A stretch of DNA of 64,000 nt from a virus. Position numbers and translations under genes: made by a program. The notes beneath the pieces were generated by a model, which had not been told where the DNA came from, did not search any database, and worked only from the letters and a program-made list of their open reading frames with translations. Location: positions 1 to 64,000 of the IMG/VR virus record IMGVR_UViG_3300032047_002388; one strand, 5' to 3'. Shown in pieces: positions 37,965 through 51,157 of the stretch (position 1 is its first letter; each line of letters starts with the position of its first letter).

Positions 37965-39404
37965 ATGGCACAGATATTTCCAACACCGAACAATGTAAAC
38001 ACTCAACCTATATCAAGAAGGGTTAGTGATAAGTTTAAGAAAATAAAAACTACAACTAACTTAGAAAAGATAAGCATTGTTAACGATTACCCAGTCATTA
38101 GAGGTAGAGAAGAGGATGGAAGTCCAGAAAACATTATATCCTACGCTAAAAGGATTAGAGACCACTACAATATTAAAACATCTGATGAAACAAAACACAA
38201 AGGTGTTCTTACTCCTCCTCATACTCAAGGTGTTGATTACTTTACAAACACAATAAATAGATTATCTCAATTTTATATTGCACCTGATAACTATAATGTA
38301 CCCCTACCAGAACCATTTGGTTATAGAGGATTTGAAGAATGGAAACAAGGTGCTACATTAGTAGAACGTAATTTTGCTGGTAATGCAACTTCATTTAGAT
38401 TTGTTATAGAATTCTTCGAAACTGGTAACAGATATTATAGTAGAAGATTAAGAGATGATTTAAATGAAGCAGACCAAAATGGTAATCCATATTTTACAAA
38501 ACATCTTATACCAACTATTATGATTCAATTGAATCAATTACAAAATTACCAAAAGGCATTCTGGCCACTAGAGGCTGTATGGGATGTACAAGTTCTTGAT
38601 TCACTAGGAAGTGGTTCAACTACTGAGTCTAACGAAATAGAAGTAGTTCAATATATAGATGCGTTGTTAAAAGGTCAACCAGTAACTAGAGATAACAAAT
38701 TAAAATCACCATACAAGAAAGGTACTGTTATATCTACCCATTGGTTTTCTCAAAATCCAAGAGGACTTGGAGATGATGAAACTGCATCATTCCTCGATGT
38801 AGATTTAAGTGGTGGAACAGATGCCGTAGATTCAGCAGGAGATACTGGAGTTGCAGAACCAACGCCAGGTGGAGGAGGAAGTACTCGAACAGTACAAGCA
38901 GATGATGGAACAGATGTTAACATTAGAGGAAATACTGGTAACCTAACAGACCAAGAAGTAGCAAATATATCAGCTGATTTAGGATTCGGACCTGGTACAG
39001 ACGAAACAACTACTGGTACAACATTTGCAGTAGATACTGATGGTGATGGTGAAATTGAATCTATTCTTAATCTAAACGATGACCCTAACTTCGAAACAAC
39101 ATTTGACCCATTTGGAAACGCTATTGGTAACAATGATACTTTTGGTGCAGCTGCAATATTAGGTAACAATTTATCTAATCTACAATCAGACGTACAAAAC
39201 TATAACAACACACAACCTTTAGGTGTTGGTGGTGCTCAAGGAAATTATGCTCCATTTGGTACACCAGGTGAATTCTCATATCAAACGAAATATTTTCAAG
39301 GAACAGAATATATTTGGAATAGAATGAATTCAGGTAAATGGGAGCCAACTTTCACTGCAAGTGGATTTGGTGGATTTGGCTTTAGTGGTGGACTCACCTT
39401 TTAA
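37965..39404 (+). CDS. probable virion/structural protein with G/T/D-rich C-half
   Basis: late-type motif upstream; low-complexity acidic/Gly region. Confidence 0.55.
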   Translation: MAQIFPTPNNVNTQPISRRVSDKFKKIKTTTNLEKISIVNDYPVIRGREEDGSPENIISYAKRIRDHYNIKTSDETKHKGVLTPPHTQGVDYFTNTINRLSQFYIAPDNYNVPLPEPFGYRGFEEWKQGATLVERNFAGNATSFRFVIEFFETGNRYYSRRLRDDLNEADQNGNPYFTKHLIPTIMIQLNQLQNYQKAFWPLEAVWDVQVLDSLGSGSTTESNEIEVVQYIDALLKGQPVTRDNKLKSPYKKGTVISTHWFSQNPRGLGDDETASFLDVDLSGGTDAVDSAGDTGVAEPTPGGGGSTRTVQADDGTDVNIRGNTGNLTDQEVANISADLGFGPGTDETTTGTTFAVDTDGDGEIESILNLNDDPNFETTFDPFGNAIGNNDTFGAAAILGNNLSNLQSDVQNYNNTQPLGVGGAQGNYAPFGTPGEFSYQTKYFQGTEYIWNRMNSGKWEPTFTASGFGGFGFSGGLTF

Positions 39405-40166: not shown

Positions 40167-40194
40167 TAAAGAACAGCAATAAGAAAGAAATTAA

Positions 40195-42549
40195 ATGAAA
40201 GGTACACTATTTTCTAGTGATTTTATCATCGATGAATCTAATAATCTAAGATTACTAGAGTTTAATACAGACTCTGGTTTTATATCAGATACATTAGCTT
40301 CTCGTTTTGATTTTACTGATTTCATATCAGTACTATCTAGTAACAACATCACTAAACTATCGATTTTATATAAGAGTTGGCACAGAGAATTTGTTGACCA
40401 CTTAAACCAAGCAATTGAAAATGATGCAACTTTCATAACAGAATTTTCAAAGATAGAAGAAGCAGAACATACTGTATATCCAACAAACGTAACCGATGAA
40501 TCAGATAGATTTATTCTAAGAATATGTTACGATGAAAATGCAATATTCGATAGTACCTATTGTAAACAAAGAGTTGAAGTTTTAAAATTATTCCACGATA
40601 ATGATGCAACTGGTTCAATACCAGAGTTTAGAGCTAGTGGTAGTAATTGGGAAGGTACTTCAATGTCATCATCATTAAATCTAACAGCAAATTATCCTGA
40701 TTTAGCAGTAAAAGATTTAAGTGAGAATCACAATCCATTGCAGTTTGCTAAGTTCAACTCTACGTTATCATCAGAATCATCTTCGGCTGATTTACTTGAA
40801 GATTATTGGTGGAACTACTTAGATAGAAGTGACCAATACATGGAAAAGTATCACACCAATCCAACTCAAGTATCGAATGGTAAACAACAAACAGTACGAG
40901 AGTATGGTATCTTATATGGTAGTACTATTGAGTATGTAAGAATTGGTAGTTATACAATCGATTCTTTACTGCCAGTTGTTGATATATCTGGTTATGATGA
41001 TGCCAATAAAGCAGCAGATAATATACCAAACAAACATTACTTTGAATATACAACTAACTTTATCAGAACTAAGAATTGGAAAGATTCATTATTAGATTCA
41101 GAGGTTATAGTTAAATCAGATGGTTCATTTGTTTCGGTTGATGAAGCAATCATAGGTGATAATATAAAATCATATATTGTAAGTGGTTCACCTGATACTG
41201 ATGATGTAGATGTATTTGGTTCTTGGTCTTATGATGGTTCAACACTTCCATCGGGTTCTGAAGTAACATCATCTAATATCACATCTTTCAGTTCTGAATC
41301 ATTAGTATATGGAACTGGTATAGAACTTGTATTACCAACTGAAGAAACTATATATTTTGCACCATATAAAAACATATTAACATATAACTCATCATCCGAT
41401 GAATTTAAGTTTAAATCAGCACATACACTTCTACCAGGAGATGGTGGGGATTATCTTATAGATGGAACAGGTGGATTAATACCAATATCACAATCTAATA
41501 CATTTATATTAAACGATTCAAATCAAAATGAATATTATCAAGTTGACGTTGAGACAACCGATACATTCTTTATTTCTGCTTCAACTCCATTTGTAGTACA
41601 CAACGCACCATGTTTTATCGCAGGTACTAAAGTTCATATAGAAGAAAAAGGAATAACAAACATAGAAGATGTAGAAGTTGGTGATAAAGTAATTTCATAT
41701 AATCACGATACTGATACTGTTGAGTATAGAGAAGTTTTAAAAGTTAGAGAACAAGAAGGTAAGAATGTTGTAACTTATATATTTGAAAATGGTACAACAC
41801 TTAGTGCTACACCCGACCACCCATTGTTTGTAAATGGTAAAGGATATTCATCTTACTATCCTAAACAAACAAAAGAAGATAGTGGATTTGATGTAGAACA
41901 AATATTATTAGGAGATGAGGTTTTACACATGGACGGGTATGGTGTTGTTATAGATGATATAATAGAAGAACCAGTTACTCATACTGTATATAACCTAGAA
42001 GAAGTAGATGGTAATAATAATTTCTTTGTAGAAAATCTTCTTGCACATAATAGATATCTAACACCTCAAACTTGTTTTGCAGCAGGTACTCAAATCTCAT
42101 TATCAAATGGTGATGTTAAAGATATAGAAGATATAGTTGTAGGTGATGAAGTATTAGGATGGGATGGAGATACGATAGATTCAGCTGAAGTAATAGCAAT
42201 AGACCACAGACATACAGTTGGTTCTCACGCAGATGCTTGTGAATCAATAGGAGATGTACCTTCACTATATACAATAAATGATACTGAAATAGAATTCACA
42301 CCAGAACATCCATTCTTAACTAAAGAAGGTTGGAAATCACTAGTACCAGACCCTAAACAAGAACCATACCTATCAAGTGGAGAATTAAAAATATTAAAAA
42401 TAGGTGATTATATAAACAAAGATGGTGAATGGATAGAGATAGAAGATATAAGAATCATTCGTTCAGATGCAGAAGAACCAGTTTATAATATTACAGTTGA
42501 TAAGTTACATTCTTATATAGCAAATGGAATAATCGTACACAATAAATAA
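40195..42549 (+). CDS. multi-Hint (intein-like) polyprotein with ATP-grasp-like N-terminal region
   Basis: three ..HN ends (VVHN, LAHN, IVHN), CFIAGT and CFAAGT starts, TPDHP/TPEHP block B; N-terminal DFIIDESNNLRLLEFNT. Confidence 0.85.
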   Translation: MKGTLFSSDFIIDESNNLRLLEFNTDSGFISDTLASRFDFTDFISVLSSNNITKLSILYKSWHREFVDHLNQAIENDATFITEFSKIEEAEHTVYPTNVTDESDRFILRICYDENAIFDSTYCKQRVEVLKLFHDNDATGSIPEFRASGSNWEGTSMSSSLNLTANYPDLAVKDLSENHNPLQFAKFNSTLSSESSSADLLEDYWWNYLDRSDQYMEKYHTNPTQVSNGKQQTVREYGILYGSTIEYVRIGSYTIDSLLPVVDISGYDDANKAADNIPNKHYFEYTTNFIRTKNWKDSLLDSEVIVKSDGSFVSVDEAIIGDNIKSYIVSGSPDTDDVDVFGSWSYDGSTLPSGSEVTSSNITSFSSESLVYGTGIELVLPTEETIYFAPYKNILTYNSSSDEFKFKSAHTLLPGDGGDYLIDGTGGLIPISQSNTFILNDSNQNEYYQVDVETTDTFFISASTPFVVHNAPCFIAGTKVHIEEKGITNIEDVEVGDKVISYNHDTDTVEYREVLKVREQEGKNVVTYIFENGTTLSATPDHPLFVNGKGYSSYYPKQTKEDSGFDVEQILLGDEVLHMDGYGVVIDDIIEEPVTHTVYNLEEVDGNNNFFVENLLAHNRYLTPQTCFAAGTQISLSNGDVKDIEDIVVGDEVLGWDGDTIDSAEVIAIDHRHTVGSHADACESIGDVPSLYTINDTEIEFTPEHPFLTKEGWKSLVPDPKQEPYLSSGELKILKIGDYINKDGEWIEIEDIRIIRSDAEEPVYNITVDKLHSYIANGIIVHNK

Positions 42550-42551
42550 TC

Positions 42552-42692
42552 ATGGCAGATAAACCAATCATATATAAAAAAGTAAGTAATCCTTACACAA
42601 GAACTAACAATAGTTTGACAAGTGACCAACAAACAAAGGCCACAAACATCATCGGTCAATTTATAACTTACTTTAAAGCAAAACACTTATAG
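42552..42692 (+). CDS. small hypothetical protein (46 aa)
   Basis: own translation MADKPIIYKK...FKAKHL, 2 nt after the Hint gene. Confidence 0.6.
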   Translation: MADKPIIYKKVSNPYTRTNNSLTSDQQTKATNIIGQFITYFKAKHL

Positions 42693-44185: not shown

Positions 44186-44701
44186 ATGAATAAAGCAGAC
44201 TATGTTCAGATGCGAATATATGCACCTGATTTTAAAATGCCATGTGAACTTGATGATAGATACTCCTATATTGAGATTTCAGAATATTCCCACGAAAAAG
44301 ATTTACTGAAAATAATCGATAGTATTAACGAAACACTATCTGATTGGAAAACCAGACCTGATGTTGATAATCTTAAAAAAAGATTTGAAGCAGGGAGTTC
44401 TTGTTTTATACAATATTTTAAAGGAGAAGTAACTGGTTGGTTTTGGACTTGTAATTTCTTAACACACGATTGGGTTGAAAAGGTAAAAGATTTACCAACA
44501 CCAAACTCAAACTATTCAGGTGGAACATATGTAATTAAAAAAGTTGCACCTAGAAATGCGGGATATCAACTATATGCATACTGTATTGAGAAAGTAATGA
44601 GTAGAACTGATTATGGATATGCGTATGTAGATAAATGGAACAAAGCACCAATCAGATTAAACTTTAATTGTGGAGCTACTTATATAGATAACTTACTATG
44701 A
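44186..44701 (+). CDS. GNAT-like acetyltransferase
   Basis: RNAGYQL...YVDKWNKAPIRL; ATATTTATA at 44156. Confidence 0.5.
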   Translation: MNKADYVQMRIYAPDFKMPCELDDRYSYIEISEYSHEKDLLKIIDSINETLSDWKTRPDVDNLKKRFEAGSSCFIQYFKGEVTGWFWTCNFLTHDWVEKVKDLPTPNSNYSGGTYVIKKVAPRNAGYQLYAYCIEKVMSRTDYGYAYVDKWNKAPIRLNFNCGATYIDNLL

Positions 44702-45189
44702 TTTACAAAATATCAGAAGAAGAAGTTTCTACATTGGAAAATCTAATTAGTACTACGAGTAAAAGTAAGGATAACCAAGAAGAACAATTAACAGAGACAC
44801 AAGATTATATCAACAATCGTAGGTATGTATTGCCAGATATTGATATAGAATATTATTCTACTGATAATAAAGAACTAAACAAAAAACTTTCAGAGATTTT
44901 AAAGGTAGATGATGTAGTACCAATTACAATACATAAGTTCAAATATGAAAATGGTGCACATTCAAAAAGACACAATGATGTTAACTCTAATCAAACATTT
45001 GTAATAATATTAGAAGATGATTATGAGGGAGGTGATTTTTATTTAAATGATGAGTTAACTGATTTTAGAAATAGAGGAGATGTTGCAACTTATGTGGGTA
45101 AAGAAAGTCCTCACTATGTAACTCCAATAACAAAAGGAACCCGAACTGTATTAGTAGTTTGGTATCCTAAAAAAGATACACTAATATAA
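44698..45189 (+). CDS. 2OG-Fe(II) oxygenase
   Basis: HND, YEGGDF, HYVTPITKGTR. Confidence 0.8.
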   Translation: MIYKISEEEVSTLENLISTTSKSKDNQEEQLTETQDYINNRRYVLPDIDIEYYSTDNKELNKKLSEILKVDDVVPITIHKFKYENGAHSKRHNDVNSNQTFVIILEDDYEGGDFYLNDELTDFRNRGDVATYVGKESPHYVTPITKGTRTVLVVWYPKKDTLI

Positions 45190-48141: not shown

Positions 48142-48863
48142 AAACATTTATAATTAGAATAAGTAGTAATAAAGATTCAGTTAGGTCTGCACAACAAACA
48201 ATAGATTCAGCAAGAAGTGTAGGGTATAATGAACCAATTGAAATATTCGAAGCAATAAAACCAACTGAGTGGAAATCCATTTTACCATATCCAAACACCT
48301 TTAATGACTATGCAAGACCAGATAATGTTGCTGCATGTTTTGCCTCTCATTATTTATTATGGGAAAAGTGTGTAGAACTAAATGAACCTATATTAATTTT
48401 AGAACATGATGCAATATTCAAAACTAATATACCTGATATAGATTTCGATATGTGTGTTAACTTTGGTAGACCAAGTTATATCAGACCTAATAAAATTGTT
48501 TACGATGAACCAAAAGAGGGATTAGATATTGTTAACCAAGTTAACTTTTTAGGTCATCATGCATATGCTATGAAACCAAAAGCAGCTAAAATATTTTGTG
48601 ATGATGTAAAGAAAAAAGTATTAACACCAAACGATGTGTGGATTGAAAGAAACTCATATCCATGGCTAGAAGAATACAGACCATTTCCAATTCATGCAGA
48701 TACTGATTTCTCTACTATACAAACTATACTACCAGATGACCATCCAATTATGGAATCATATTATAAAGTTACAAGTAAGGAGAATCCTAATTACGAATAC
48801 TTAGAAAAATATTTTCCTCATGTTCTAACAGGTCCACAATCAGAAAGACATATAAATGTATAA
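48138..48863 (+). CDS. glycosyltransferase family 25
   Basis: ACFASHYLLW, ILEHDA, HAY. Confidence 0.85.
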   Translation: MKTFIIRISSNKDSVRSAQQTIDSARSVGYNEPIEIFEAIKPTEWKSILPYPNTFNDYARPDNVAACFASHYLLWEKCVELNEPILILEHDAIFKTNIPDIDFDMCVNFGRPSYIRPNKIVYDEPKEGLDIVNQVNFLGHHAYAMKPKAAKIFCDDVKKKVLTPNDVWIERNSYPWLEEYRPFPIHADTDFSTIQTILPDDHPIMESYYKVTSKENPNYEYLEKYFPHVLTGPQSERHINV

Positions 48864-49692
48864 TAAAGTAAATTTACCAATTGGATGGACTGAAGAAATT
48901 CCAAAATATTGGACAGACCCAAGTAAGATAAACGCATGGGTTGGTGAACCTATTGAATCTAATAAGTTTCTTTTAGTTAGTTGGAGAATGGCAGGTTCAG
49001 AATTTTGTAAAGAGTTAATACGAGAGAATTATCCAGAAACAGTAAATATAAACCATTGGTCAAAGAGTCATATTATCATAGGAAAGAAACTTACTCAACA
49101 GTTAATTGATAATGCAAACACCAAAGTGTTCATGATAATATCAGACCCGAGAGATGTTGCAAGTAACTTAGTTAGTTTTGAGAATGGATTTGGGTTACAC
49201 TACCATGGTCATCATGATTATACACATGGTACGTCTGATTCAAATAGTGTAACATTTTTAAATGAAGTTGCCGATAAACAAATTGAGTTAGTAAATCATT
49301 ATACAAAAAGATTTGGTGATAACTGTATTGTACTGCGATATGAAGATGCATTTCAAAACCAAGATAAATTTCACAATCAAGTATCTAAGTTTATCGGATA
49401 CGAACCATTAGGTATTGATGATGTTAGAAAATATAAATGGTCAATCTATAAAAATGTAGGGTTGTTTAGAAACCACTTTGACTCAGATGTTTTAACCAAA
49501 CACTACAATGAGTACAAATGGTTTTATGATAAATGGGAATATCCAATTGAAGGAATGAATGATTTAAGATATGGATGGCATAGATTTAATGATAAGGTAA
49601 ATGGGAGACAACTTACCGAAGATTATAAACAGATGTTAAAAAGAAATGGAGTTTCCGAATCCGATAGAACAAACAATATAGATGAATTCTAA
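48856..49692 (+). CDS. sulfotransferase-like protein
   Basis: SWRMAGSE, DPRDV, LRYED. Confidence 0.6.
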   Translation: MYNKVNLPIGWTEEIPKYWTDPSKINAWVGEPIESNKFLLVSWRMAGSEFCKELIRENYPETVNINHWSKSHIIIGKKLTQQLIDNANTKVFMIISDPRDVASNLVSFENGFGLHYHGHHDYTHGTSDSNSVTFLNEVADKQIELVNHYTKRFGDNCIVLRYEDAFQNQDKFHNQVSKFIGYEPLGIDDVRKYKWSIYKNVGLFRNHFDSDVLTKHYNEYKWFYDKWEYPIEGMNDLRYGWHRFNDKVNGRQLTEDYKQMLKRNGVSESDRTNNIDEF

Positions 49693-51157
49693 GAAAAATG
49701 TTATAGTAGTTTCGGCAAGAAGAAGTGGTACGCATCTTCTTCATGATTTAATAGTTAATAATTTTGGATATGAAAGTACTAATTACAACTATATAGATTA
49801 CTATAAATTTACAGATGAAATGGAAGGGTTTGAATCATCTATGAATGAAGGCGGTAAAATAACTTGGACTCATTCTCATGATTATAAGGATTACCACAAA
49901 TACAATCATAGTATTGATAACCAAAATAAATTAGATAGATTCTTTTCCGAATCTAAAATTATATTAGTTTACAGAGATGTTAGAGATATAATAACATCAT
50001 GTTATCACAGACCAAGATATAAATCTAAATATAAAACATTTGATAACTTTTACAAGAACTTCGATTTCGATGGATGTGAATTGATTGACCAGAAATACGA
50101 TAATATGTTTGAATTATTACTTCAGTATTATAAGAATTGGTTTTCTGTTTACATGGCAAAAGAACTTCTTGATATCGATATGGAAGTAATATCGTTTGAA
50201 GAAATAATAAAAGATTACGATTTTTCAGTATCTAAGATAGGAAAGTTTTTAGAACAAACACCAACGGGAGTTGATGTTAGGTTACCAAATAAAAATAATG
50301 AAAACATTATTTACACAACCAATGATTTTAGAAATGGAAAGATTAATGATTGGCTTTCGACTATGGAACAGCAATTTGGTACAGAGTTGGGTGAAAGGTT
50401 TTACCATGACTTAGGTGCAGGTTTAGATTGTTTTTTAAACGATATAAAGATACATAAATATCATAATCCTCAGCGAAATAAGTTTTACAAACCCATTCCA
50501 CTAAATGTTGAAAAAGATTTAACATCTGAATTAGAACAATATAAAAATAAATTTAGGTTCTTCGGTGAAAGAGGTGCAATAGAATTAATAGAGAATAGAT
50601 ACAAAGATTCAATACAGAAATCAACAGATTTCAGATACTATCACAAAGTTTTTTATTACGATAAATATGTATTGAAATTTCACTATCCATGTAAAGCAAG
50701 TTTAGATAAAAAAACATTTGATTCTACAATACCTACTGCATCAAAAGAACAACTCTTAACGATTCTTAAAACAAATGATTTTCTATATGAAAATGGTATT
50801 GTTCCTAAACTATATCATGCAGGAATCTACAAAGGAATTTTGTATGTTATACAAGAAAGATATTCTGAAGAAAGTATAATTTATAACAAATACAATTTTC
50901 ATCCTAAGTGGGATAATTTTTTCCAATGGGCAGTTGATTTGGGTTTAGACAGACAATTAAAAGAATATTTTTTCAAAGCATTAGAGAACAATATTTTACT
51001 AACTGATTTAATCAATGTATATAATAATGCAATTGATAAGAATGGTAATATAAAATACTTTGATTTAGATGGTATAAAATATTTCGAAACAAAAGAAGAA
51101 ATGATTAACTCAGAAGATTATAAAAACTCAATAGGTATTATAAAAGACATAACATGA
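49682..51157 (+). CDS. sulfotransferase fused to a kinase-like C-terminal domain
   Basis: ARRSGTHLL, YRDVRD, SFEE; then VLK, VPKLY, IQE, TDL...N, FDLD. Confidence 0.65.
   Translation: MNSKKNVIVVSARRSGTHLLHDLIVNNFGYESTNYNYIDYYKFTDEMEGFESSMNEGGKITWTHSHDYKDYHKYNHSIDNQNKLDRFFSESKIILVYRDVRDIITSCYHRPRYKSKYKTFDNFYKNFDFDGCELIDQKYDNMFELLLQYYKNWFSVYMAKELLDIDMEVISFEEIIKDYDFSVSKIGKFLEQTPTGVDVRLPNKNNENIIYTTNDFRNGKINDWLSTMEQQFGTELGERFYHDLGAGLDCFLNDIKIHKYHNPQRNKFYKPIPLNVEKDLTSELEQYKNKFRFFGERGAIELIENRYKDSIQKSTDFRYYHKVFYYDKYVLKFHYPCKASLDKKTFDSTIPTASKEQLLTILKTNDFLYENGIVPKLYHAGIYKGILYVIQERYSEESIIYNKYNFHPKWDNFFQWAVDLGLDRQLKEYFFKALENNILLTDLINVYNNAIDKNGNIKYFDLDGIKYFETKEEMINSEDYKNSIGIIKDIT

Follow-up and report, generated by a model that had tools for sequence, protein, structure and literature searches.

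A phage protein that joins a predicted permuted ATP-grasp fold to optional intein-like Hint domains and a conserved small partner

What kind of chemistry calls for an enzyme-like head and three tandem Hint domains within a single phage polypeptide? This question is raised by the open reading frame (ORF) at 40195–42549 of the IMG/VR record IMGVR_UViG_3300032047_002388, which we analyzed within a window of 64,000 nucleotides (nt), i.e., the first 64 kb of this 128-kb viral record (CheckV completeness 67%). The window has a guanine-plus-cytosine content of ~31% and carries nearly all of its genes on the + strand. A preliminary description of the locus had proposed an ATP-grasp-like head followed by three Hint domains, and we found the layout and its junctions exactly where they had been placed (Table 1): VVHN470-AP-C473...AHN619-RYLTPQT-C627...VHN783-K784-stop. 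As described, Hint2 and Hint3, with only 147 and 157 amino acids (aa), hold no endonuclease domain, and the +1 residues are Ala, Arg, and Lys, none of them Cys, Ser, or Thr. Our answer, which we consider probable, if only just, is that the ORF encodes the large subunit of a two-protein phage ATP-grasp ligase in which the intact Hints are optional modules that remove themselves.

The case begins with the family and the fold of the head. A word-based search gave 421 homologues at E<=1e-3, none of which is named, and a profile of the head matched 334 representatives of 50%-identity clusters. A single-protein query found no related viral loci; with the alignment query that was needed instead, 219 relatives of the window subfamily were collected from viral contigs. 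The head was modeled by AlphaFold2 (AF2) from an alignment of 50 relatives from viral loci (predicted local distance difference test, pLDDT, 89.4). In a Foldseek comparison of this model with the PDB, the top matches were glutathione synthetases, glutathionylspermidine/trypanothione synthetases, and E. coli YjfC/YgiC at E 2e-6 to 1e-4, the value of 2e-6 being reached by YjfC, glutathionylspermidine synthetase (GspS), and human glutathione synthetase; TMq was 0.40–0.46. VIA-align gave Z 11.0 for 1m0w (root-mean-square deviation, rmsd, 4.3 Å; 221 residues aligned), 10.7 for 2hgs, 10.6 for 7uk8, and 9.4 for GspS. Enzymes of the permuted type thus lie at Z 9–11, with alignments that begin at model residue 1, and canonical ATP-grasps (Ddl, ITPK, RimK, LysX, TTL/TTLL) lie at Z 5–6.6, with alignments that begin only around residue 50. 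The same order emerged from a Foldseek-independent VIA search of 48,161 chains, whose top eleven are all of the permuted type (Z 7.4–9.9), including the E-64 ligase Cp1B and Mfla_0391, with RimK, LysX/ArgX, and TTLLs next at Z 5.8–6.6. The ATP-grasp 7mgv, which is associated with peptides made by the ribosome and modified post-translationally (RiPPs), reaches Z 4.5, aligns only from residue 52, and falls far below the glutathione-synthetase type.

Judged by its predicted fold, the head belongs to the glutathione-synthetase/GspS/YgiC type of circularly permuted ATP-grasps, in which the metal-binding strand pair comes first. The earlier assignment as ATP-grasp-like was therefore borne out, its likeness to TTL was not, and the permuted order explains why the D...ExN motif that had been noticed sits at the extreme N-terminus. 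This motif is genuine: D9, E22, and N24 are invariant, as are D13, K60, R109, E114, D119, D169, and K173, in 49–50 sequences whose identity to the window protein goes down to ~30%, and its N-terminal position is common to every relative, since the profile matches begin at residue 1. D9, E22, and N24 can also be aligned with the ADF...LEVNT segment found in D-Ala-D-Ala ligase, though the E value of 2.3 is not significant. With the circularly permuted ligases 2hgs and 1m0w (eukaryotic glutathione synthetase), 2io7 (E. coli GspS), 7uk8 and 7uk6 (the peptide-spermidine ligases YgiC/YjfC), and 9cjn (the fungal E-64 ligase Cp1B), the fold is shared over the whole 297-residue head (Z 8.3–11.0, rmsd 3.8–4.9 Å, 204–230 residues aligned), and their Asp/Glu-x-Asn strand pair is likewise found at the N-terminus. 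In contrast to these enzymes of 370–600 aa, to which its identity is 7–14%, the head comprises just 297 aa, belongs to no Pfam or NCBIfam family, and is part of a phage protein that always comes with a 46-aa partner and is fused to Hints. Among the viral models in BFVD, Foldseek found no match at E<=1e-3; in the ESM Atlas the best match (0.90) is an unnamed viral cluster, and ATP-grasp clusters follow at 0.86–0.87, which we take as leads only. A word-based search for stand-alone heads returned 18 short matches, mostly fragments on short contigs. In these closest structural relatives, ATP activates a carboxylate, which is then joined to an amine. According to PMC12568646, the closest enzymes are homoglutathione synthetase along with YgiC and YjfC, there termed peptidylpolyamine synthetases, and Cp1B couples an acid to an amino acid.

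We then turned our attention to the two intact Hints at the other end of the protein. Pfam places two Hint domains at ~472–620 and 627–783, and the models Intein_splicing (55.2 bits, cut-off 35.8; E 9.2e-15, covering 635–783), Hint (51.5 bits, cut-off 29.7; E 1.3e-13), PT-HINT (38.8, cut-off 27.7), Hint_2 (38.1, cut-off 28.4), and Vint all exceed their cut-offs. Hint2 and Hint3 share 31% identity (E 1e-12), and both have Cys1, the block-B TP(D/E)H, and the terminal HN. In an alignment of 20 closer relatives, C473 of Hint2 is nearly invariant and H542 invariant; C627, H705, H782, and N783 of Hint3 are invariant and so is Lys784. From 274 family proteins we parsed 415 canonical Hints, a set enriched in close relatives of the query, of which 401 start with Cys and 399 end with HN; the +1 residue is Lys in 248 and Arg in 124 (together 372/415), Ser or Thr in four, and Cys in none. 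Because Cys1 and HN are kept, the intact Hints are under purifying selection for both cleavage chemistries, and because the +1 residue is not Cys, Ser, or Thr, canonical splicing is excluded. The setting of a canonical class 1 intein, which sits inside a conserved host protein between two functional exteins, was not found either: the last C-extein is a single Lys, and the spacers between Hints are 0–12 variable residues. The earlier view that these Hints are of the bacterial intein-like (BIL) type and do not splice canonically was thus substantiated.

By their sequence features, Hint2 and Hint3 qualify as complete A-type BIL-like domains. With A-type BILs such as the C. thermocellum BIL (2lwy) they share Cys1, a block-B TxxH, the terminal His-Asn, and the lack of both an endonuclease and a +1 Cys/Ser/Thr. 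According to the review PMC7765530, which cites Amitai 2003 and Dassa 2004, A-type BILs cleave their own C-terminus via the Asn. Unlike them, Hint2 and Hint3 are phage-borne, form a tandem at an enzyme's C-terminal end with a single Lys as last residue, have a +1 residue that is almost always Lys or Arg, and are preceded by a Hint without nucleophile. The preserved catalytic residues suggest that the Hints would have to process themselves for the protein to work. As a separate observation, the Pfam model AXH (Ataxin-1/HBP1 module, PF08517) matches residues 474–577 of Hint2 (41611–41925) at E 1.5e-21, which beats every Hint model, and nearly every homologue carries AXH as a precomputed annotation. 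This points either to a kinship between AXH and Hint domains or to contamination of the AXH model.

Hint1, which we call pseudo-Hint, differs from its two followers. Residues 298–470 have no Pfam match; their AF2 model (pLDDT 93.7) is matched best in Foldseek by Tetrahymena BIL2 (6y75; E 3.4e-9, TMt 0.78) and the C. thermocellum BIL (2lwy; TMt 0.87, rmsd 2.6), and further by hedgehog (6tyy; TMt 0.80) and many inteins. The family profile found 6tmm at 2.5e-6 and 2lwy at 9.2e-6 for this domain among PDB sequences, and hhalign aligned it with Hint3 from end to end, weakly (E 0.0016). Among 50 relatives, the column equivalent to Cys1 contains Gly 45 times, Ala three times, Asp once, and Ser once, namely in the window protein, and neither an N-terminal nucleophile nor a block-B His is conserved. 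What is kept is the end of the domain: the penultimate H469 (47/50) is the only His present in at least 80% of rows, N470 is found in 50/50, and His and Asn are also invariant in an alignment of 15 relatives from the six-Cys sister family described below. Structure model, profile, and alignment columns thus uphold the earlier description of a genuine Hint that has no block-B His and ends in VVHN. The pseudo-Hint is a Hint fold that is unable to form a thioester and still has the Asn by which C-terminal cleavage proceeds.

BIL2 from the Tetrahymena BUBL1 locus (6y75, 6tmm), which is the best match of the pseudo-Hint by structure and by sequence profile, offers a precedent for BILs arrayed in tandem and for a Hint thioester attacked by lysine. 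In the corresponding passage of PMC8616854, BIL2 makes a K(epsilon-NH2)-C-terminal isopeptide. BUBL proteins alternate BILs with ubiquitin-like cargo domains, whereas the spacers between the phage Hints measure just 0–12 residues.

The preliminary description had read the locus as a polyprotein that frees a ligase along with the activated peptides AP and RYLTPQT. Its junction residues are as it described them, and HN-A-P-C recurs in most of the 20 closer relatives. The comparison across homologues, which the description had itself suggested, returned varying Hint numbers and unconserved linkers. Only the head and the pseudo-Hint are constant (~460–475 aa); they are followed by a tail of 1–12 residues, by one, two, or three intact Hints, or by a terminal Hint that is of another type and lacks HN (7/58 loci). 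Proteins with zero, one, two, and three canonical Hints number 27, 67, 168, and 12 (n=274), so whole Hints come and go and a fixed three-Hint design is not supported; in the single-Hint relatives of ~635–650 aa it is Hint2 that is missing. A FastTree tree built from 144 cores requires at least 28 changes in Hint number, compared with a mean of 66 for shuffled labels. Linker 1 reads AP, SP, DP, A, nothing (HN|C), LGISGS, PYGVGRWGYT, or others, with Ala in 18 and a gap in 12 of 50 sequences at position 471, and linker 2 consists of 2–12 unrelated residues. Linkers of such changing length and sequence, lacking altogether in some relatives, are not conserved peptides, for which reason we dropped AP and RYLTPQT as released products and regard the polyprotein reading as highly improbable. 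A RiPP-like or tagging role, if there is any, would concern the whole Lys-terminated tail and not the two linkers. Relatives that consist of the core alone show what such a tail looks like: they end in HN plus 1–12 residues, e.g., FHNK*, HNPAPPPKL*, or HNKPKQPKK*, where the asterisk denotes the stop.

What the Hints lack in constancy is found in a second, much smaller protein. The 46-aa ORF past the stop of the large one, which had been described as its partner, is genuine and conserved: an ORF of 43–53 aa (cluster c2) begins 0–100 nt past the stop in 57/58 loci, and the 58th has a weaker candidate. Its Tyr8-Lys9 is nearly invariant and it usually ends in ...F(I/L)xYFKxKH(S/L/T); in NCBIfam, the partner and two relatives have no match. 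We predicted the complex of core residues 1–470 and the partner, each with a custom alignment of 49 rows, alongside three controls. Three runs gave ipSAE 0.82, 0.84, and 0.82, with 0.00 for the best of the controls, and that mark is reached by 58/80 solved complexes and 2/110 mismatched pairs, a calibration that is only rough because of the custom alignments. The runs share at least 84% of their contacts and the partner has pLDDT of at least 87. According to these models, helix 29–46 of the partner lies on ATP-grasp residues 8–23 and 117–141, while its residues 7–11 pair with the pseudo-Hint strand 435–440 and touch 300–304. The 46-aa product is thereby predicted to clamp both core domains, which supports binding rather than demonstrating it. 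Short contigs with 99% identity to the gene occur in four seawater metatranscriptome runs, with parts of the gene uncovered; they start at 40179, 40190, and 40207 in three of the four, and two of them reach across the stop codon and the small ORF. Subject to possible DNA carry-over, they weakly hint at a transcript with its start slightly upstream that spans both ORFs. As a separate candidate, a read-through or frameshift that fuses the large and the small ORF was rejected: the spacing ranges from 0 to 100 nt among loci, and the two ORFs lie in different frames here.

The position of the partner also bears on the possibility that the Hints themselves drive a conjugation of the BUBL/BIL2 kind, in which the thioester at Cys473 or Cys627 would be resolved by a lysine, either the +1/terminal Lys or Lys9 of the partner, so that an isopeptide links the core to a target without ATP. 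The match of the pseudo-Hint to BIL2 and the isopeptide which that domain forms, the Lys or Arg at +1 of most Hints, and the predicted contact between the nearly invariant Tyr8-Lys9 segment and the pseudo-Hint are all consistent with such a reaction. The partner is predicted to sit, however, on precisely that Hint which has no Cys for a thioester; Arg is a weak nucleophile; and the relatives without intact Hints (27/274) retain the core and the tail Lys, just as the six-Cys sister family retains the partner. Since Hint-less relatives and a partner-bearing sister family exist, thioester chemistry cannot be the core function, and we consider this reading improbable.

We therefore return to the two-protein ligase and propose the following course of events. 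The permuted ATP-grasp would activate a carboxylate and join it to an amine, acting as a two-subunit ligase with the 46-aa partner, whose C-terminal helix would rest on the ATP-grasp sheet and whose N-terminal Tyr-Lys strand would pair with the pseudo-Hint. Hint2 and Hint3 would be optional modules within a short Lys-terminated C-terminal tail, into which intact BIL-type Hints may have been inserted, and from which they may have been lost, repeatedly. They would remove themselves post-translationally by an N–S acyl shift at Cys473 and Cys627 and cyclization of Asn619 and Asn783, through cleavage or non-canonical splicing. What remains would be the core with a short tail that resembles those of the Hint-less relatives: the joined flanks AP, RYLTPQT, and K would look like such a tail, and AP and RYLTPQT would be spacers instead of products. 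We infer the ligase activity, the self-cleavage, and the order of events from the folds, the residues, the module number, the partner ORF, and the predicted interface.

Several observations weigh against this proposal. At the sequence level, residues 1–470 match no Pfam family at E<=1 and the head matches nothing in NCBIfam at E<=10; the curated models for the permuted type would presumably be Pfam GSH_synth_ATP, GSP_synth, and CP_ATPgrasp_1 or 2. The TM-scores of the head to solved enzymes are moderate as well (0.37–0.46). Both points would fit a head that is a pseudo-enzyme or a structural module without ligase chemistry, e.g., a virion or injected protein that is matured by Hint autoproteolysis. 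This we judge quite improbable, as the charged and polar motif residues are invariant down to ~30% identity and the island in which the gene is set consists of genes of metabolic type rather than structural ones. Furthermore, Hint2 has a Pro at –1, as do 125/415 family Hints, and a –1 Pro is unfavorable for the N–S shift in inteins. The complex score is no more finely calibrated than stated above, and contigs from RNA runs cannot prove transcription. Finally, optional self-removing add-ons leave three features unexplained that point to further chemistry: the near-universal Lys/Arg at +1, the C-terminal Lys, and the invariant Asn470. These three features motivate bolder readings, namely the lysine-directed conjugation discussed above and a fusion of enzyme and substrate.

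The tail Lys is kept across the family. It is the last residue in 168/218 proteins and within the last four in 202/218; of the 16 proteins without a Lys near the end, several are fragments or have the other type of terminal Hint. A sister family of ~495 aa, brought up by the profile search (188 relatives in viral contigs; loci L080–L159, e.g., L080:6001-7506), shares the permuted ATP-grasp and the pseudo-Hint, after which a six-Cys tail takes the place of the Hints. The pattern HN..C..C....CG..C....C..C is present in 58/60 distinct complete sister proteins, of which 59 have Lys within the last four residues, usually in the form of ...PKL or ...EKV, and four have an extra intact Hint that ends in VHNKK. 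A homologous small ORF with the end ..IKxKHLS follows the sister gene in 77/78 loci with room for it. Separately, an ORF of unknown family and ~95–100 aa (cluster c45) directly precedes the ligase gene in 72/80 sister loci and is also present in a few loci of the window subfamily (L026, L036, L046, L047, L064).

These data raise the possibility that enzyme and substrate are fused: the clamped ATP-grasp would act in cis on the carboxylate or the Lys of its own tail, cyclization of Asn470 would then cut the modified tail free, and the intact Hints, as passengers, would excise first. Such a self-contained, single-turnover device would account for a C-terminal Lys that is kept whatever precedes it, for an Asn470 that is found in every sequence though the domain has no nucleophile and sometimes only 1–12 residues follow, and for the six-Cys pattern after the HN of the sister proteins. 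The closest solved enzymes join peptide C-terminal carboxylates to amines. The neighborhood fits as well: genes for 2-oxoglutarate (2OG)-Fe(II) oxygenases lie near the gene pair in 55/58 loci and 67/80 sister loci, and radical SAM/SPASM genes in 25/58 and 27/80. Conceptual precedents, in which a C-terminal tail is modified by the very enzyme that bears it, or a residue is modified at a scaffold's C-terminus, ahead of release, are the borosin OphMA and PEARL pathways, which differ in that other enzyme classes are used and release is performed by separate proteases; for the phage protein, the modification of the tail is conjectural. Against the fusion stands its cost, for a protein of 500–900 aa would be spent per product. 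In addition, the tails of the window subfamily are short and unconserved beyond the Lys, and the island enzymes are typical of a variable island, so that their presence may be coincidental. We thus treat the fusion as a real but minor possibility. If it holds true, what is set free would be a modified lysine or a short peptide here and a six-Cys peptide in the sister family, and the phage would possess a RiPP-like route with enzyme, substrate, and release protease in one chain.

Table 1. Features of the gene pair and its upstream element, given as positions of the window
Feature	Coordinates	Strand	Remarks
ORF of the putative large subunit	40195..42549	+	784 aa, coordinates include stop; ATP-grasp, pseudo-Hint, two BIL-type Hints, terminal Lys
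Predicted ATP-grasp domain, residues 1–297	40195..41085	+	AF2 model, Foldseek, VIA, invariant residues
Pseudo-Hint (Hint1), residues 298–470	41086..41604	+	AF2, Foldseek, family profile, alignment columns
Linker Ala471-Pro472	41605..41610	+	+1 of pseudo-Hint and –1 of Hint2; variable or absent among relatives
Hint2, residues 473–619	41611..42051	+	Pfam; C473, T539-P-D-H542, H618-N619
Linker RYLTPQT, residues 620–626, +1 Arg	42052..42072	+	relatives: 2–12 unrelated residues
Hint3, residues 627–783	42073..42543	+	Pfam; C627, T702-P-E-H705, H782-N783
Lys784, sole residue past the last Hint	42544..42546	+	C-terminal Lys kept family-wide
46-aa partner ORF, predicted clamp subunit	42552..42692	+	coordinates include stop; begins 2 nt past the stop of the large ORF
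AT-rich promoter-like element TTATATAAA	40163..40171	+	degenerate form of TATTTATA

Around the gene pair, the neighboring ORFs are mostly without a Pfam or PHROG family. Five tailoring enzymes had been reported downstream; only one of these five ORFs, 44698–45189, has a match in Pfam or PHROG and is a 2OG-Fe(II) oxygenase, the other four having no family in either, and genes for PhoH and glycosyltransferases come after them. In relatives, genes for a carbamoyltransferase, adenosine 5′-phosphosulfate (APS) kinase, DUF2061, and SGNH-like proteins recur in the same island, and up to eight tandem 2OG-Fe(II) oxygenase-like genes are found downstream of the small ORF (e.g., L012, L023, L030–L033). 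Strict pairing is confined to the small ORF; the island genes may lie close out of habit and not because of their function. Three further ORFs of the window deserve mention. The ORF 37965–39404 (479 aa) has a middle part rich in Gly, Thr, and Asp, a Gly-Phe-rich C-terminus, and no Pfam or PHROG family, and homologues of it lie near the ligase gene in 4/57 related loci compared. The adjacent ORFs 49682–51157 and 48856–49692 have no family match; the first opens with a segment VVSARRSGTHLL, which we take to resemble the loop of sulfotransferases that binds 3′-phosphoadenosine 5′-phosphosulfate, and may be compared with the APS kinase genes in the island of relatives.

The promoter of the gene had been described as late-type. 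No T4 late-type TATAAATA is present upstream of the gene, the nearest element being TTATATAAA, and with 16 copies found versus 16.2 expected, TATAAATA is not enriched in the window; a T4 late promoter was therefore rejected. Instead, TATTTATA, the reverse complement of TATAAATA, stands in relatives 20–46 nt upstream of the gene in 40/54 and 38/54 distinct upstream regions (78/108 related loci), compared with 1.6% of random 80-nt windows; the exact TATTTATA is absent upstream of the window gene. It is probably the promoter core of this phage group. Within the window, 12 copies of TATTTATA lie on the coding strand (1019, 3062, 6040, 10053, 19533, 29747, 31892, 37954, 39773, 44157, 51744, 51885) versus four for the reverse complement, and some of them stand 11–40 nt before ORF starts (37965, 39784, 44186).

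Where does the family occur? Nearly all of its members come from phage contigs of seawater and fresh water. A scan that covered 185,579 species of bacteria and archaea, with one genome each, found a single relative on a 2.8-kb contig of a Cyanobium metagenome-assembled genome, which is probably phage DNA, and the family looks phage-restricted. Searches of a phage record collection with the gene (megablast, tblastn) gave no near match and three weak, Hint-only matches in Ruminococcus phages; the nearest cultured-phage relative of the window PhoH is only 47% identical. PF07068, the T4-type major capsid, was not found in the 128-kb record, and as the controls did not respond either, this result is uninformative on the type of phage. 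Near-identical copies of 40195–42692 (at least 96% of sampled words) turn up in 14 or more metagenome runs of marine or seawater origin, which belong to different studies dated 2013–2025, and near-identical DNA is partly present in six metatranscriptome runs. The phage lineage of the window is thus widespread in the sea.

Taken one by one, the components are of known kinds. A phage architecture of ATP-grasp and Hint was not found in our searches of the literature on Hint, BIL, permuted ATP-grasp, and RiPP, for which supplementary files may hold more, and this architecture, the micro-protein subunit, the pseudo-Hint that retains its Asn, and the rule of the tail Lys appear to be undescribed. 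The protein would join ATP-grasp ligation with Hint self-processing, together with a micro-protein subunit so small that it would escape standard annotation. Moreover, the Asn of a Hint without nucleophile, the C-terminal Lys, and the Lys or Arg at +1 point to a defined reaction. If the tail is the product, the family would represent a new phage route to small peptides or amino-acid derivatives during infection, and protein engineering would gain a tag chemistry that is compact and self-releasing.

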